From positions 1 to 39,006 of the IMG/VR virus record IMGVR_UViG_3300020477_000064: a stretch of 39,006 nt of DNA. One strand, given 5' to 3'. A program made the position numbers and the translations under genes. How positions within the stretch are numbered: position 1 is the first letter of the stretch; every line of letters starts with the position of its first letter. The notes below the pieces were generated by a model. The model made no database searches and was not told where the DNA came from. It saw only the letters and a list, made by a program, of their open reading frames with translations. This DNA is from a virus. Lineage: Duplodnaviria; Caudoviricetes. Below are positions 23,122 to 33,627 of this stretch, piece after piece.

Positions 23122-23895
23122 TTATCCTGGCACGTCTGTTGTATCAAAATCACTATCTGTTAAACCACTTGTTGTTGCATGATGATCATATCCACTATAA
23201 TCTAGAACATTATCAGTCCCTGTTGCATCATCAGAATTTAATCTCCAATAACCTTTCAGATAAGACTTTAATGAACCCGTTTTTGTAAGATCTTTTGGCC
23301 TACCATTATTATATATATATTCTACATCATCAGCTGTAAGACATATATTTTGAAAAAATGCAATTTCACACATAATAGCATCTATAGCATCTGCACTATT
23401 AGCTCCAATTGTTGCATTTCCACTAAAGGCTGCGGGGGCAGAAACTGAAGCTCCTGTTGCATCCAAAGAACCATTTACATAGATTTTACATGTTGTTGCG
23501 CTTACATCATAAGTAAATACTAAATGATACCATATGTCATGATCTACATCAGTATCATTTAATAATGTAGATTGAGCACTACCAGTATCAGTAACTAAAG
23601 CAAACCTTTCACTATCACCACTCAAATCAACATATTGTATCCAAAATCCACCATTATTTACTGCTCCAGCTGAAAAAATAGGATATCCATCTTCATTAGA
23701 CACACTACTAGCATCTGCTGTTAATTTTATCCAACCTGAAACAGAAAAATCTTTAGAATCTACTCTGAAATGACTTGAAGCAGAGCCTCTAGCAATATAA
23801 TCACTGCCAGCCTCTGTAAATGTACATGAAGTTCTGGTTCTATATTGAGTTGGACCAGCAGAAGGCTTTAAAATCCTAGCTCCTAATCCTAACAT
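23122..23895 (-). CDS. LamG/concanavalin A-like lectin domain virion protein
   Basis: FSVSGWIK, WYHLVFTYD, KIYVNG, IGA, YNNG.P, GYWRL motifs. Confidence 0.85.
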   Translation of the reverse strand: MLGLGARILKPSAGPTQYRTRTSCTFTEAGSDYIARGSASSHFRVDSKDFSVSGWIKLTADASSVSNEDGYPIFSAGAVNNGGFWIQYVDLSGDSERFALVTDTGSAQSTLLNDTDVDHDIWYHLVFTYDVSATTCKIYVNGSLDATGASVSAPAAFSGNATIGANSADAIDAIMCEIAFFQNICLTADDVEYIYNNGRPKDLTKTGSLKSYLKGYWRLNSDDATGTDNVLDYSGYDHHATTSGLTDSDFDTTDVPG

Positions 23896-27878: not shown

Positions 27879-28501
27879 TATTTATCCATATATTCCTCTA
27901 TAGGAATAGCTTTATTACCGATATATCTATAACCAAATTTAAATTCTTTTGAATTAGCTAATTGACTTTTAGTATATTTAGTCTCTGAAGGAGCCGATAC
28001 CCATCCTCTGTCATGATATACTGTTGCTCCTCCTAAAAGATTCCCATATTCCCAGCTAGGTTCTTCATAATTACTACCTGCTATTCCAACATGTAGTCCT
28101 GATGGGCCTCCTCCAGGTAAAGCCACAATATCTCCTACTTGTATATCTTCTTTCTTGTCAATCCTAATAAAATTAGGATCCTTATCTAGCAAATCAGTAA
28201 GCCTACCAGCATTCTCGCTATATGGAATATCTACTCCTGCATCTGCAAAAGACTTACACACAAAAGTAGCACACATATTACTATAATGCTTTTTCTTGTT
28301 AACCCAAACATATGTATCTAAACCTGTATCATGCCTGAACTTAGCAGCATCGGCGATATTTTGATTATCCTTGGGTATCCCTTCAATGCCTGCTATATCT
28401 TTATTTATATCTACAGCAGTCTTATCAGGCTCTGCAGTTTCAAATTGAAAATCCTTTAATACATCAGATTGTATAGTATTTGGATCAAACTCATTCCCCA
28501 T
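27878..28501 (-). CDS. CHAP/NlpC-P60-like cysteine hydrolase
   Basis: CATFV...F..AG, GDIV and HVGI catalytic Cys/His arrangement. Confidence 0.75.
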   Translation of the reverse strand: MGNEFDPNTIQSDVLKDFQFETAEPDKTAVDINKDIAGIEGIPKDNQNIADAAKFRHDTGLDTYVWVNKKKHYSNMCATFVCKSFADAGVDIPYSENAGRLTDLLDKDPNFIRIDKKEDIQVGDIVALPGGGPSGLHVGIAGSNYEEPSWEYGNLLGGATVYHDRGWVSAPSETKYTKSQLANSKEFKFGYRYIGNKAIPIEEYMDK

Positions 28502-29228
28502 CTGTTATTTCCTTACGTTTAACTTCTTCTAATTGATCGTTAGAAAAGCCCTGGAATACCGCTCCAGAGATTTGTTGCACACTTGTTTTAGTCTTATCCT
28601 CCAGATCTAGAATATCGGATAGCTTAAATAAGGCTTTCAACCTTGTCTCCTCCTTTGAGCCGTCAGTAGCCAGGGCTTTTATATTCTCCAATACAAGTTT
28701 ATCACTTATATTCAACTCCTCTAATACAGGTCTTAACTTCTCATTCATACGTGTAGTTATCCTCTCTGTTTTAATTAACTTCCCAGCCTTCACATTTGCG
28801 TAGCTAGGGTTATTTGTAGGAAAGGCTTCTAAATATGCTTGTTGTGGAGTCATTCTTTTGTCCATCCAATAGTGCAAAAACAACTCTTCCCTACTATTTA
28901 AATCTTTACGAGCTTCGACTATATCATCTACGTGGATATCCCCACCAAACGAATATATATTCACTCTTCTTGAAGTATCCATTAAGGTCTTATCAGATAC
29001 TATAAAAGTACCAGTACAAGTACCTATATACCTAACTTGACGGTTCTTGCCCTTTACCTTAAGCATTGAACCTTTTCTTAAGATTTGAATAATACAATCA
29101 TCATCTGCCTTGACCCAATCACCTATGTGACCTTCCCTCCAATCCCTTAAATAATGGATATCTTCAGGAACTTCATCCTTTGAGTCAAAAACTACATGAT
29201 CAATTTTATTTACTTTATATGATCTCAT
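28491..29228 (-). CDS. probable terminase small subunit
   Basis: QQAYLEAFP...YA...A.KL helix-turn-helix segment and RLKAL.KL motif, near terL. Confidence 0.6.
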   Translation of the reverse strand: MRSYKVNKIDHVVFDSKDEVPEDIHYLRDWREGHIGDWVKADDDCIIQILRKGSMLKVKGKNRQVRYIGTCTGTFIVSDKTLMDTSRRVNIYSFGGDIHVDDIVEARKDLNSREELFLHYWMDKRMTPQQAYLEAFPTNNPSYANVKAGKLIKTERITTRMNEKLRPVLEELNISDKLVLENIKALATDGSKEETRLKALFKLSDILDLEDKTKTSVQQISGAVFQGFSNDQLEEVKRKEITDGE

Positions 29229-30392: not shown

Positions 30393-30441
30393 CCTCCTGA
30401 GCTAATGTGAGGAATGCCTTCGTGGGTGTTAAACTGGCTCA
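30393..30441 (+). ncRNA. small structured element, possible pseudoknot
   Basis: UGAGCUA/UGGCUCA and AAUGCC/GGUGUU helices; CCUC/GAGG crossing helix. Confidence 0.4.
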
Positions 30442-30613
30442 ATAATTAAGCTTCATTGAAGAAGACTATGGTTGTCAACCTTGTAGCACTAAGAATGATC
30501 AACTTAGTGATCTACTAAAGGATGTAAAAGAGAACGTAGATAGAGGGCGTAACACAATGGAAACAAGTCTAGTGAGTAGCTTATCCATAGCAGTGAAAAC
30601 TAGACATTAAACC

Positions 30614-30691
30614 AAGGGATAGGTCGTGGAGTAATGAACCACTATCATACGTATTGTTATGTGTTGATACCTCTGTGGTGATCTGTCCCTT
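30614..30691 (+). ncRNA. 78-nt branched RNA element
   Basis: 12-bp closing helix AAGGGAUAGGUC/GAUCUGUCCCUU, internal GUGG/CCAC and UAUCA..UACGUA/UAUGUG..UGAUA arms. Confidence 0.5.
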
Positions 30692-30695
30692 AAAT

Positions 30696-30757
30696 TAGCC
30701 CCATGAGAGGCTGAACTAATATCTCAAAACGTAGCCCCATGGGAGGCCTGTATCCCA
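30696..30757 (+). repeat. tandem imperfect repeat of an H-type pseudoknot (36-nt period)
   Basis: TAGCCCCATG(A/G)GAGGC at 30696 and 30732, each followed by TATC(T/C)CA with compensatory change. Confidence 0.65.
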
Positions 30758-30782
30758 CTAACCATTAATAAAGGAGTTGATA

Positions 30783-30896
30783 ATGAATGAAGTATTTGAT
30801 TTGTTGTGGTTTATAGATCTATCTATAACTGCAGTATTAAAAGCGTTGTTAGTAATAATAGCTTATAAATATTTAAAAAGGAGTGACAATGGATAA
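30783..30896 (+). CDS. small membrane peptide (37 aa)
   Basis: MNEVFDLLWFIDLSITAVLKALLVIIAYKYLKRSDNG; AAGGAG RBS. Confidence 0.6.
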   Translation: MNEVFDLLWFIDLSITAVLKALLVIIAYKYLKRSDNG

Positions 30897-31155
30897 ACAA
30901 TGGATAATGATTACTGGAGTATTGTACAATTTGAATCACATATATAAGATATATTATGAAACAGCTAATGATATTAATTATTTATGTTTAGTAAGGACAG
31001 ATGATACTGAGATAAGAATACAAATGAAGAATGCTGGTGAATATGTAGTTGAGACATTAAGACCTCAGTTAGCATTTAATAATTTTTGTGATATGTCTGA
31101 GTATCCTGATTATGAAGATAAGAATCTAAAATATCTTCCTGATGATGACTATTAG
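30889..31155 (+). CDS. hypothetical protein
   Basis: MDKQWIMITGVLYNLNHI...; AAGGAG RBS favours ATG 30889. Confidence 0.7.
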   Translation: MDKQWIMITGVLYNLNHIYKIYYETANDINYLCLVRTDDTEIRIQMKNAGEYVVETLRPQLAFNNFCDMSEYPDYEDKNLKYLPDDDY

Positions 31156-31160
31156 TAAGA

Positions 31161-31571
31161 ATTGGTGAGAGTAATGGTGAATAGGTAGCTCCTATTTATT
31201 ATTATGCGTATGAAACCTGTGAACTGTACTGGAAACCAGAGTGGTTGAAGACAGAGGCATTCAGGTATCTGAGGTAAAGGCGTTGTGGCCGCTAACCAGT
31301 CAAATGATTGGCAGCAGGTTAATTTCCCTTGAAGGAGTAGCGTGACTTAAAAATATAAATAGAGAATACTCTGTTTTCCTTGGGCTTACATAAACAACTA
31401 TGGTAACGATGGTGTAGGCTATTTAATCATTAACCTATGATGGGTAATATTGATGTATCTATAGCTAAATAGATATGAGGTATAAGGAGACATCCTAATG
31501 ATGAAACAAGTAATCTGTTATAGTCAAAAGATCTTGCGGGTGATATTCTAATCCCGTCATACCTCACCAAT
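31161..31571 (+). ncRNA. large (~411 nt) structured non-coding RNA candidate
   Basis: No ORF of 60 aa or more; ends pair (AUUGGUGAG/CUCACCAAU); many internal helices; abuts the tmRNA-like gene. Confidence 0.6.
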
Positions 31572-31576
31572 AATTA

Positions 31577-31656
31577 GGGCGTGACAGGTTTCGACCATAT
31601 TTCAATGCTACATTGTAGCCGAGTATGGTACGTGAGTTCGATTCTCACCACGTCCA
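31577..31656 (+). ncRNA. miniature tmRNA-like RNA (tRNA-like domain only, Ala identity)
   Basis: Acceptor GGGCGUG/CACGUCC with G3-U70 and A73; stemless D-loop ACAGGUUUCGA; helix CCAUAUU/AGUAUGG; T-arm GUGAG-UUCGAUU-CUCAC. Confidence 0.8.
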
Positions 31657-31677
31657 CAAATAATAAAGGAGTTGATA

Positions 31678-31806
31678 ATGAACAACGAGAAGAGACGTAG
31701 AAATATTCTTAAGAAACATCATCGTAATTGTTGGTGGATAAAAGAATGGTTTAGACAAGATTTACATTATAATTATAACCAAAATAAAAGGAGCACACAT
31801 GAGTGA
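31678..31806 (+). CDS. small basic protein (42 aa)
   Basis: MNNEKRRRNILKKHHRNCWWIKEWF...; AAGGAG RBS. Confidence 0.55.
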   Translation: MNNEKRRRNILKKHHRNCWWIKEWFRQDLHYNYNQNKRSTHE

Positions 31807-32098
31807 AGGAGCATTAGAATATACATTAATTAAAGAAACTAAAGTTAATGTAGAGGTAAGTGATATAATAAATGAATTAGCTAGCATAGTAGATGATAAA
31901 CTTGATGGTTATTATTTATATGACAGTCAGCCACATTTATCAAATGATGATGATGGTGACAGTATTACAGTTTATTTAAGTGATGATGACTATGTAGAAG
32001 GTAGTCCAGTTGAATGGAAACCATTATTTACTAAAGCTATTAAGAGATTAGCTCAAGATATAGCTGATGGTATTGAAGAAAGAGGACCAGTAGAATAA
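31799..32098 (+). CDS. acidic hypothetical protein
   Basis: 99 aa, AAGGAG RBS, D/E rich. Confidence 0.75.
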   Translation: MSEGALEYTLIKETKVNVEVSDIINELASIVDDKLDGYYLYDSQPHLSNDDDGDSITVYLSDDDYVEGSPVEWKPLFTKAIKRLAQDIADGIEERGPVE

Positions 32099-32110
32099 TT
32101 GTCAACCCAA

Positions 32111-32171
32111 CGAGTAAGCCCAAGGGTAATGTAAGACCTTGATAGAGGCAATCATCCCTAGGGCGAACTCG
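32111..32171 (+). ncRNA. hairpin carrying 18-nt motif AAGACCUUGAUAGAGGCA (copy 1)
   Basis: CGAGU/ACUCG, GCCC/GGGC, AGGG/CCCU, AUG/CAU and CCU/AGG helices; motif at 32133-32150. Confidence 0.55.
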
Positions 32172-32189
32172 ATAACAAGGAGAAATAAA

Positions 32190-32267
32190 ATGGAATTAGC
32201 AGGAATAGTAGTGTTGATAGTAATAGTAGGTTTTGTTTATAACACATTCTTTAAAAAGGAGAAATAA
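32190..32267 (+). CDS. small membrane peptide (25 aa)
   Basis: MELAGIVVLIVIVGFVYNTFFKKEK; AAGGAG RBS. Confidence 0.6.
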   Translation: MELAGIVVLIVIVGFVYNTFFKKEK

Positions 32268-32268
32268 T

Positions 32269-32784
32269 ATGGGGTATGATTTATATGGTGTAAATCCAAG
32301 ACAAGTAAATATGAAAGATTATCCATTGTTAGTTAAATGGGAAAATAAATCATTTGATGAGCGTCAAGAAATGCCTGAAGAAGATAGAAAAGAATATTGG
32401 GATCAGATGCAAGCTAGAGATACTGAGTCTGGTGAATATTTCAGAGCAAATGTATGGTGGTGGCGTAGAATATGGATGTTTACATGTGAAGTATGTGATG
32501 ATGTAATGGATACATGGCAAATAGATGCTGGTGATAGTAATAGTGGTGTTGAAATAGATGAAGAGACATGTGCTAAAATGTTACCATTAATGAAAGAAGC
32601 TGTCAAAGATGGTTCAGCAATGGAATATCAAAAGACAGTAACTGAATATATTGAAAGTGCACCCAAGAAGGATAATGGAATGTATGAAGATGAACATTGG
32701 ATGGCTAATTATCCATTTGATGTAAAGTTCTTTGAAAGTTTCATTACATTTGTAGAGCGTAGTGGTGGATTCACAATATCATAA
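32269..32784 (+). CDS. phage hypothetical protein
   Basis: Start MGYDLYG with AAGGAG RBS; GEYFRANVWWWR and terminal SGGF.I motifs. Confidence 0.8.
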   Translation: MGYDLYGVNPRQVNMKDYPLLVKWENKSFDERQEMPEEDRKEYWDQMQARDTESGEYFRANVWWWRRIWMFTCEVCDDVMDTWQIDAGDSNSGVEIDEETCAKMLPLMKEAVKDGSAMEYQKTVTEYIESAPKKDNGMYEDEHWMANYPFDVKFFESFITFVERSGGFTIS

Positions 32785-33028: not shown

Positions 33029-33104
33029 GGTGGATATTGACAGGCGAGTAGATACTAGTTAAAGACCTTGATAGAGGCACGATACTAACGAGGGTCAAGC
33101 CACC
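33029..33104 (+). ncRNA. hairpin carrying 18-nt motif AAGACCUUGAUAGAGGCA (copy 2)
   Basis: GGUGG/CCACC, UUGAC/GUCAA, UAGU/ACUA and CCU/AGG helices; motif at 33062-33079. Confidence 0.55.
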
Positions 33105-33146: not shown

Positions 33147-33458
33147 ATGGAATTATTAACAAAATCAATAAAAAAGGTAGCAGAAGAACAGTATGAAAAA
33201 GGTAGTGATATGAGTCAAAAGGTAGTAGCTAAATTCTTTGATCCTGTAGGTAGTTGGACATGGTATCTAATGAATAAAGATCCAGAGTCAGGATATTGTT
33301 GGGGCATTGTAGATGGTATGGCTGTTGAAATGGGTTCATTTATGATAGAAGAGCTTGAAGAACATACTGGACATTTTGGATTAGGTATTGAAAGAGATAC
33401 ATTGTTTGATCCTGTAGAAGCTAATACTATATGGAAAATGTTAAATGAGAGTAAGTGA
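33147..33458 (+). CDS. DUF2958-like protein
   Basis: VAKFFDP.GSWTWY, WGIVDG..VEMGSF..EEL and GLGIERD..F motifs. Confidence 0.75.
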   Translation: MELLTKSIKKVAEEQYEKGSDMSQKVVAKFFDPVGSWTWYLMNKDPESGYCWGIVDGMAVEMGSFMIEELEEHTGHFGLGIERDTLFDPVEANTIWKMLNESK

Positions 33459-33627
33459 ATATATAGATTATATAACCAGAACAGATGTTCATTTAGGCAA
33501 GAATGTAAAGCCTAGTGAATATACTCACATAACAATACGTATGGTACATAAGCGTCAGCGTTATGAGTATCAAAAACAAAGGAGAAAAGATGATATCAAT
33601 AGAAAAAGATTTGCAAAGAATAGTTGA
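33445..33627 (+). CDS. hypothetical protein
   Basis: 60-aa ORF bridging the flanking genes. Confidence 0.55.
   Translation: MRVSEYIDYITRTDVHLGKNVKPSEYTHITIRMVHKRQRYEYQKQRRKDDINRKRFAKNS

Follow-up and report, generated by a model that had tools for sequence, protein, structure and literature searches.

An intact tRNA-like domain (TLD) of tmRNA without the message is encoded at positions 31577-31659 of the window, i.e. the whole stretch of 39,006 nucleotides of phage DNA that was analysed. This identification is confirmed, and the fold is not a product of chance. The mini-tmRNA is conserved and under selection; its kind is known, from mycobacteriophage DS6A, and little studied. New are the breadth of the viral family and the uncatalogued large RNA adjacent to the gene. 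The window represents a linear virus record with a completeness of about 70%, from an AT-rich phage, and its proteins comprise portal, terminase, SU10-type capsid, Erf recombinase and primase-helicase. The mini-tmRNA gene is located near the head of a + strand small-gene region. All its elements (acceptor stem, G3-U70, D-loop, P2, UAC, T-arm and CAA) were found where the original prediction had put them:

31156..31574 (+), multi-stem non-coding RNA of about 420 nt, delimited by a terminal helix; ends approximate, a few bases before the mini-tmRNA
31577..31659 (+), gene of the TLD-only mini-tmRNA, 80 nt up to the discriminator, 83 nt with the CAA tail (Rfam RF00023)
31577..31583 (+), 5' strand of the acceptor stem, G3 at 31579 (sequence; G3 in 52 of 52 distinct homologues)
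31584..31594 (+), stemless D-loop (alignment to the Rfam consensus)
31595..31628 (+), capped H2/P2 arm in place of the message domain (MFE fold)
31595..31603 with 31621..31628 (+), helix of the H2/P2 arm, followed inwards by an internal loop and the hairpin 31607-31619 (MFE fold)
31629..31631 (+), connector UAC (family consensus GAC; A334 equivalent kept at 31630)
31632..31648 (+), T-arm (sequence, Rfam match; T-stem positions 2-4 Watson-Crick in 52 of 52 homologues)
31649..31659 (+), acceptor 3' strand 31649-31655 with U70 at 31653, discriminator A 31656, tail CAA 31657-31659
31660..31682 (+), RBS and start of the next small ORF (sequence)

The Rfam tmRNA model RF00023 matches 31577-31659 with 55.1 bits (E 4.6e-20), i.e. 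above the gathering cut-off of 47, which bears out the predicted identity as a message-less tmRNA TLD. Both ends of the model are matched, and 12 nt stand for 296 model positions. According to this alignment, the mini-tmRNA has no pseudoknots, resume codon, tag reading frame or stop codon. The tmRNA 5' and 3' termini are arranged in the standard order, and both the T-arm and the 7-bp acceptor stem are formed, the latter with 7/7 positions paired between 31577-31583 and 31649-31655 including G3-U70 (31579/31653). The MFE fold of the 83-mer is the TLD fold (z -3.77), and none of 200 shuffles was equally stable. P2 is capped by an internal loop and a hairpin with 5 bp and a 3-nt loop. The insert AAU-GCUAC-AUU-GUAGC-C, which had been quoted as the only sequence between the strands of the 7-bp helix, is present; UC before it and G after it had been left out, and they add a bulged C-G pair.

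The D-loop ends with a UUCGA(C)-type sequence. The 3-nt connector keeps the conserved A and has U, not G, as its first base. In cryo-EM structures described in the accessible part of PMC8363625, SmpB contacts A15, U17, C18, G19 and A334 of tmRNA. Positions 31591-31593 in the D-loop line up with U17, C18 and G19 of E. coli tmRNA and would be their equivalents if the numbering is transferred along the alignment. At the position of A15, the mini-tmRNA has a U, and this is the only contact changed in the alignment; the equivalents of U17, C18, G19 and A334 are kept.

Other identities were considered and rejected. A full-length one-piece tmRNA would have an mRNA-like domain with resume codon, tag and stop, which is absent according to both ARAGORN and Rfam. 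In a permuted two-piece tmRNA, the piece with T-arm and CCA would come first; here, the order is standard. A canonical or intron-containing tRNA, which would have a D-stem and an anticodon arm with a 7-nt loop, had been named beforehand as the identity that might score better. ARAGORN called neither a tRNA nor a tmRNA over the whole window, and in Rfam the tmRNA model outranks the overlapping clan match. An amber suppressor would require an alternative hairpin with a CUA loop; this has a loop of 3 nt only and its fold is 4 kcal/mol worse, the loops differ among homologues, and the window genes are normal under table 11. Finally, a split tmRNA with the upstream RNA as message was discarded: Neither this RNA nor five homologues contain a frame with Ala-Ala-stop, and the large RNA is found without a TLD in 8 of 8 homologues.

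The mini-tmRNA belongs to a sizeable viral family. A pattern scan for TLD ends 14-44 nt apart yielded 119 viral loci with 96 distinct sequences. Only those with 7/7 acceptor stems were kept, i.e. 52 distinct sequences from 62 loci. The 44 distinct matches left out have fewer than 7 acceptor pairs, and most of them look like 3' ends of full tmRNAs; one of them, the provirus copy L071, has a longer D-loop and is in truth a TLD-only gene. The 52 homologues are 66-89 nt long, mostly 80-84 nt. A compact class of 66-67 nt (L031, L053, L060, L081, L091 and L141) has one hairpin in place of the capped arm. The connector is GAC in 48, AAC in 2 and UAC in 2 homologues, CCA is genomically encoded in 29 of 52, and the apical loop sequence varies.

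P2 positions 2-6, which the pattern left free, are 93% paired in the 52 homologues and comprise many pair types, compared to a mean of 44% and a maximum of 53% in 1000 cross-sequence shuffles. T-stem positions 2-4, likewise outside what the pattern fixed, are Watson-Crick pairs in 52/52. G3 was found in 52/52 sequences, although A3 would have passed the filter, and no locus was returned when the otherwise unchanged pattern asked for a base other than U at position 70. This argues that alanine identity is under selection. Fifty-two distinct viral homologues with compensated helices and G3-U70 throughout indicate selection and not decay, as the original prediction had held.

For the comparison between viruses and prokaryotes, a stricter sub-pattern was used. 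It matched 32 viral loci, 31 of them TLD-only; in 185,579 prokaryote genomes, it had five matches, two of them TLD-only, and one of these two is identical in sequence to the provirus copy L071. The TLD-only form has a strong bias to viruses. A 73-nt TLD-only gene at L165 3324-3396 (+) is located near tRNA genes on a 13-kb contig of a Saccharibacteria MAG, which is possibly a binned phage contig. ARAGORN called a tmRNA in none of the 40 carrier loci scanned, and two or more tRNAs in 5 of them. A BLAST search of the TLD against 50,697 annotated phages returned short T-arm matches only. Full viral ssrA genes and fragments also exist, and full-length tmRNAs in phages are reported in the accessible part of PMC9004378. 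Among the former are three viral tmRNA genes with tag frames (L001, L002 and L003), whose first 19 nt are the same as in the mini-tmRNA; two are full-length one-piece genes, and the third was marked as permuted by ARAGORN. No description of a widespread phage TLD-only family was found in the literature searched, which covered subscription journals only to a small extent.

The novelty implied in the original prediction does not hold, since the TLD-only tmRNA of phage DS6A is a direct precedent and is reported to inhibit tmRNA. For this RNA, PMC4131195 and PMC11915505 cite Mao et al. 2009; it is listed as 'TLD only' by Hudson et al. 2014 (PMC4131195) and corresponds to tmID 11587 (Phage__Mycobacterium.9) of the tmRNA Website, at about 28478-28560 of JN698994. 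The available text of PMC4131195 states that a molecule similar to the DS6A form strongly inhibits tmRNA, chargeable or not, and offers SmpB titration as a possible cause; that of PMC11915505 reports inhibition of the cell's own tmRNA in E. coli by the DS6A form. Both the DS6A and the window RNA are phage-borne, comprise 83 nt in standard gene order and are identical at 52 of 83 bases. They share G3-U70, the stemless D-loop, the T-loop, a P2 arm whose cap consists of an internal loop and a small hairpin, and the lack of a genomic CCA. In contrast to DS6A, the phage analysed here is unrelated, AT-rich and has an SU10-type capsid; its RNA has a UAC connector and an apical hairpin of 5 bp with a 3-nt loop, and its surroundings are a non-coding RNA island, with a large structured RNA immediately before it.

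The bacterial one-piece tmRNA (RF00023), which acts with SmpB, has the whole TLD in common with the window RNA, as reflected by the score above gathering; unlike it, the window RNA cannot tag or release by trans-translation. Mitochondrial CDS-less tmRNAs (RF02544) and the plastid forms also consist of a TLD without tag frame. As described in the accessible part of PMC11915505, the mitochondrial ones are mostly permuted and re-permuted in Jakoba libera, those from Mallomonadaceae plastids comprise about 65 bp, and certain mitochondria and plastids have kept such message-less tmRNAs along with SmpB. These organellar RNAs replace the full tmRNA, the mitochondrial ones co-occurring with their own SmpB, whereas the viral window RNA would meet a host with full tmRNA.

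Within its own clade, the mini-tmRNA is an accessory gene. TerL of the window phage has at least 1217 homologues. Diverged, intact TLDs are present in six further records whose TerL is related (71-82% identity); these records represent 6 of 35 in the clade, four of the six having been picked because they have a TLD. Among the near-complete clade records not picked for this reason, 1 of 9 carries one. The carriers are scattered over the TerL tree, and no TLD match was found near TerL in the pair of closest relatives that have 9 kb of DNA upstream. Five of the seven clade TLDs align to the window copy at 55-65 of 83 bases, and in two members the connector is even looser than UAC. A genomic CCA is absent from all seven clade carriers, the window included, and encoded in only 1 of 14 tRNA-Met calls at clade loci (duplicates included). 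Therefore, the CAA tail is a habit of the clade and not a sign of decay. Full-length ssrA, whose presence in the relatives would have pointed to a unique deletion in this copy, was found in none of 23 related records. No smpB was detected in five carrier records, two of them at least 90% complete, so the partner would be host SmpB.

In the relative L161, the large RNA is joined straight to the same downstream RBS and the TLD is absent; the TLD thus acts here like a tidy cassette of 79 nt. A 27-nt direct repeat (93%) at 30761-30787 and 31656-31682 comprises the RBS and start codon and flanks a segment that holds the large RNA, the mini-tmRNA and two small ORFs. It could serve module exchange by recombination. 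The original prediction also termed the mini-tmRNA an early RNA. This found no backing in the promoter/terminator scan, which counted 15 promoter-like sites compared to 21.3 expected, with none assigned, or in seven RNA contigs (see below), in which expression of the 83-mer was not seen. Early timing would follow from where the gene is located, at the start of the + strand small-gene region.

The large structured RNA a few bases upstream was absent from the original prediction. The region 31156-31574 is closed by a terminal helix (terminal inverted repeat) and its fold has a z of -3.37, with 1 of 100 shuffles being as good. Pattern scans and profile searches revealed eight more full-length homologues in related phage and metagenome contigs; two distant homologues fold at z -5.72 and -3.31. 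Loci tied to this family of about 400-430 nt are L013, L014, L154, L156, L161, L215, L232, L021 and L022; L157 proved to be a chance match to the large-RNA pattern. In the 9-row alignment, both sides change in 33 of 57 predicted pairs, whereas shuffles gave 18 +/- 2.5 such pairs and slid controls gave 4-12; the significance of this covariation is overstated, because the structure was derived from the same alignment and several rows are close kin.

No Rfam family matched the 420-nt RNA, GOLLD and ROOL included. GOLLD could be rejected, as RF02032 (conserved 3' domain) had no match in the window at E up to 10, while it detects the GOLLD of relatives at 137-186 bits. RF03087 (ROOL) had no match at E up to 10 either, in a scan without a positive-control match, and a supposed likeness of the first hairpin to ROOL was not borne out. 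BLAST of the large RNA against the 50,697 annotated phages returned nothing. Its short motifs are absent from the searched part of the supplements of PMC12286853 and PMC10690425, the remainder of which could list it. The 420-nt RNA resembles GOLLD (RF02032) and ROOL (RF03087) in being a large multi-stem phage RNA near tRNA-like genes and in being seen in RNA samples; it differs from them in that it is shorter than both and had no match to either model at E up to 10. It is a candidate for a new large-RNA family.

Seven RNA contigs from four marine metatranscriptome runs of three studies were placed on a 4-kb stretch around this locus. Six fall inside 31161-31564; of the seventh, only a part of 38 nt matches, and its ends are foreign. 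The four runs were picked for holding part of 30400-32300, the contigs give neither strand nor ends nor level, and the rest of the 4-kb stretch is the only control for DNA contamination. Still, a stable RNA would produce just such a confinement of the contigs to the large RNA in more than one study. The contigs stop at or before 31564, and none of the seven touches the 83-mer; the lack of a contig on the 83-mer is uninformative, because contigs and library preparation lose RNAs so short.

GOLLD was found in 7 of 39 clade records (L248, L250, L251, L252, L259, G046 and G052), in the same island as the 420-nt RNA in the window. Two clade GOLLDs (137 and 142.7 bits) are under the gathering cut-off and therefore missed by routine Rfam scans. 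GOLLD lies within about 550 nt in 5 of the 6 other clade carriers compared to 2 of 29 non-carriers (Fisher p 3.7e-4, to be read with the caveat that the records are not independent, many are fragments and four carriers were picked for having a TLD). In G026 and G067, the TLD starts 13 and 14 nt behind GOLLD, respectively. The sixth carrier, G005, has a 446-nt ORF-poor stretch directly before the TLD. This stretch, L011 5333-5778 (-), is located between tRNA-Met and the mini-tmRNA; its folding signal is weak (z -1.68), and it has no Rfam match. At L250 1050-1144 (+), an odd tRNA-like element with an enlarged D-arm region is located between mini-tmRNA and GOLLD; ARAGORN designates it 'tRNA-Stop'. 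Outside the clade, GOLLD was found in none of 44 carrier records, and a TLD is located directly behind the 420-nt RNA in none of its eight homologues. A census of ORF-free DNA, which is crude because antisense ORFs were counted, found at least 350 nt free upstream of the TLD in 4 of 39 loci. Proximity to phage tRNA islands is a known trait of GOLLD and ROOL (accessible part of PMC12286853), so a shared variable RNA island may explain much of the link between GOLLD and TLD. The proximity of GOLLD in 5 of 6 other clade carriers also suggests that the TLD may serve as a cutting signal in addition.

For the function of the mini-tmRNA, the following reading has roughly an even chance of being correct: The TLD copy is matured by the host, charged with alanine, binds SmpB and enters nonstop ribosomes, where it adds alanine without a tag and damps the rescue-and-tag pathway. 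The mini-tmRNA would be transcribed together with the upstream 420-nt RNA, and an RNase P cut at 31577 would release it and at the same time free the 3' end of the large RNA. Host enzymes would then add CCA to the CAA-tailed RNA and charge it with alanine. RNase P cleavage, charging through the G-U pair and SmpB binding are established for the tmRNA TLD (accessible part of PMC3989591). The charged TLD would bind host SmpB and, in complex with it, could take the empty A site of ribosomes stalled on broken mRNA. Here, alanine would be added without degradation tag or release; TLD together with SmpB allows in vitro synthesis of polyalanine (Shimizu and Ueda 2006, as cited in the accessible part of PMC2481249). 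Consequently, the host pathway would be damped, and the phage may gain from less ssrA tagging. The basis for this reading comprises the fold, the alanine-identity bases, most SmpB-contact bases, the covariation in the family, the lack of phage smpB and the viral bias. The affinity to SmpB may be below that of host tmRNA, because the connector is UAC instead of GAC and looser in two clade members, and because A15 is a U. Inhibition alone does not explain the invariant G3-U70, since the inhibition cited above is independent of chargeability; the invariant pair speaks for an RNA that is charged and put to use at the ribosome as well, and not for a sponge alone. In the literature search listing, no paper was found that reports a benefit to a phage from blocked trans-translation.

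The original prediction had offered three mechanisms, among which SmpB competition is backed by outside experiments. Tag-free rescue is a rather doubtful alternative that shares its chemistry with the mechanism favoured above and differs in the net effect. Here, charged TLD and SmpB would take the stalled peptide in one or more rounds to supplement host rescue instead of blocking it; the peptidyl-TLD would drop off or other factors release it, so that ribosomes are freed and peptides carry an Ala tail instead of the ssrA tag. This would be in line with the invariant alanine identity, the polyalanine synthesis in vitro (as cited in PMC2481249) and the message-less tmRNAs kept with SmpB in some mitochondria and plastids (accessible part of PMC11915505). 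On the other hand, an RNA without stop codon provides no release by itself, and the DS6A form inhibits and does not help in E. coli. Quite unlikely is a TLD whose main job in the clade is to define the end of the large RNA as a tRNA-like site for RNase P and 3' trimming, as ordinary tRNAs could do beside GOLLD. The start of the mini-tmRNA few bases after the 420-nt RNA, the distances of 13-14 nt behind GOLLD in G026 and G067, the position directly behind the ORF-poor stretch in G005, the GOLLD frequency (5/6 clade carriers, 2/29 non-carriers) and the RNA contigs ending at or before 31564 all agree with such a role. However, the TLD follows the 420-nt RNA in 0/8 homologues, GOLLD is present in 0/44 carrier records outside the clade, and cutting needs neither G3-U70 nor the SmpB surface.

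The decoy role, which had also been proposed, is improbable; the RNA would here divert modifying toxins or defence nucleases that target tRNA or tmRNA. The patchy accessory distribution over the TerL tree and the frequent location in phage tRNA arrays (at least two tRNA calls in 5 of 40 scanned carrier loci) would suit a decoy, and nothing specific was found for it. The usual target of tRNA-targeting defence enzymes is the anticodon loop, which the mini-tmRNA does not have; in addition, the apical loop sequence is not conserved, and the invariant alanine identity would not be needed. Covariation largely refutes a decayed remnant of a captured ssrA gene or integration site, which is highly improbable, even though phages carry full ssrA genes and fragments and the genomic tail is not CCA. 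Both ends in standard order and a compensated capped helix are preserved in 52 distinct sequences, seven diverged versions in one clade are intact, and the clade tRNA-Met genes mostly do without CCA, too (1/14 calls has it). Furthermore, no integrase match was found among the 37 window proteins scanned, in a record about 70% complete. A very small share of the probability falls to other roles.

A far-reaching extension of the favoured mechanism is unlikely: TLD-only RNAs would be a widespread, unannotated phage device that hijacks host SmpB for template-free Ala-tailing on stalled ribosomes and, in this abundant clade, forms one ribosome-directed module with GOLLD or the 420-nt RNA, which the TLD matures and works alongside. 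One strict pattern uncovered 52 distinct viral TLD-only RNAs, compared to 9 entries 'standard, no CDS' among 97,179 sequences in the tmRNA database, with one phage case named (accessible part of PMC11915505). If TLD-only RNAs inhibit or divert trans-translation, they would represent a common RNA-only phage route by which ribosome rescue is altered. Tests are easy with an RNA of 83 nt, and TLD-only phage RNAs offer a simple model for the role of message-less organellar tmRNAs. Trans-translation is also an antibiotic target. As for the 420-nt RNA, its compact size and its covariation make it a candidate new family of large RNAs seen in marine RNA samples, and the island that it has in common with GOLLD provides a handle on the unsolved function of large RNAs.

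Several other features of the window were observed. Gene-free DNA at 30443-30664 (+) is 79-85% conserved in L006, L008 and L009 and is possibly another structured RNA or a regulatory region. Behind it, a direct repeat of 16 nt occurs at 30696 and 30732. The early region encodes a DUF2958 protein at 33147-33458 (+). A virion-protein-like ORF at 23122-23895 (-) has a marginal match to a PHROG 'toxin' (E 8e-4), which is far weaker than its match to a structural protein. An exact 18-nt direct repeat (32133-32150 and 33062-33079) and a 21-nt inverted repeat (95%; 30643-30663 and 33526-33546) in the early region are candidates for phage promoter or operator motifs.
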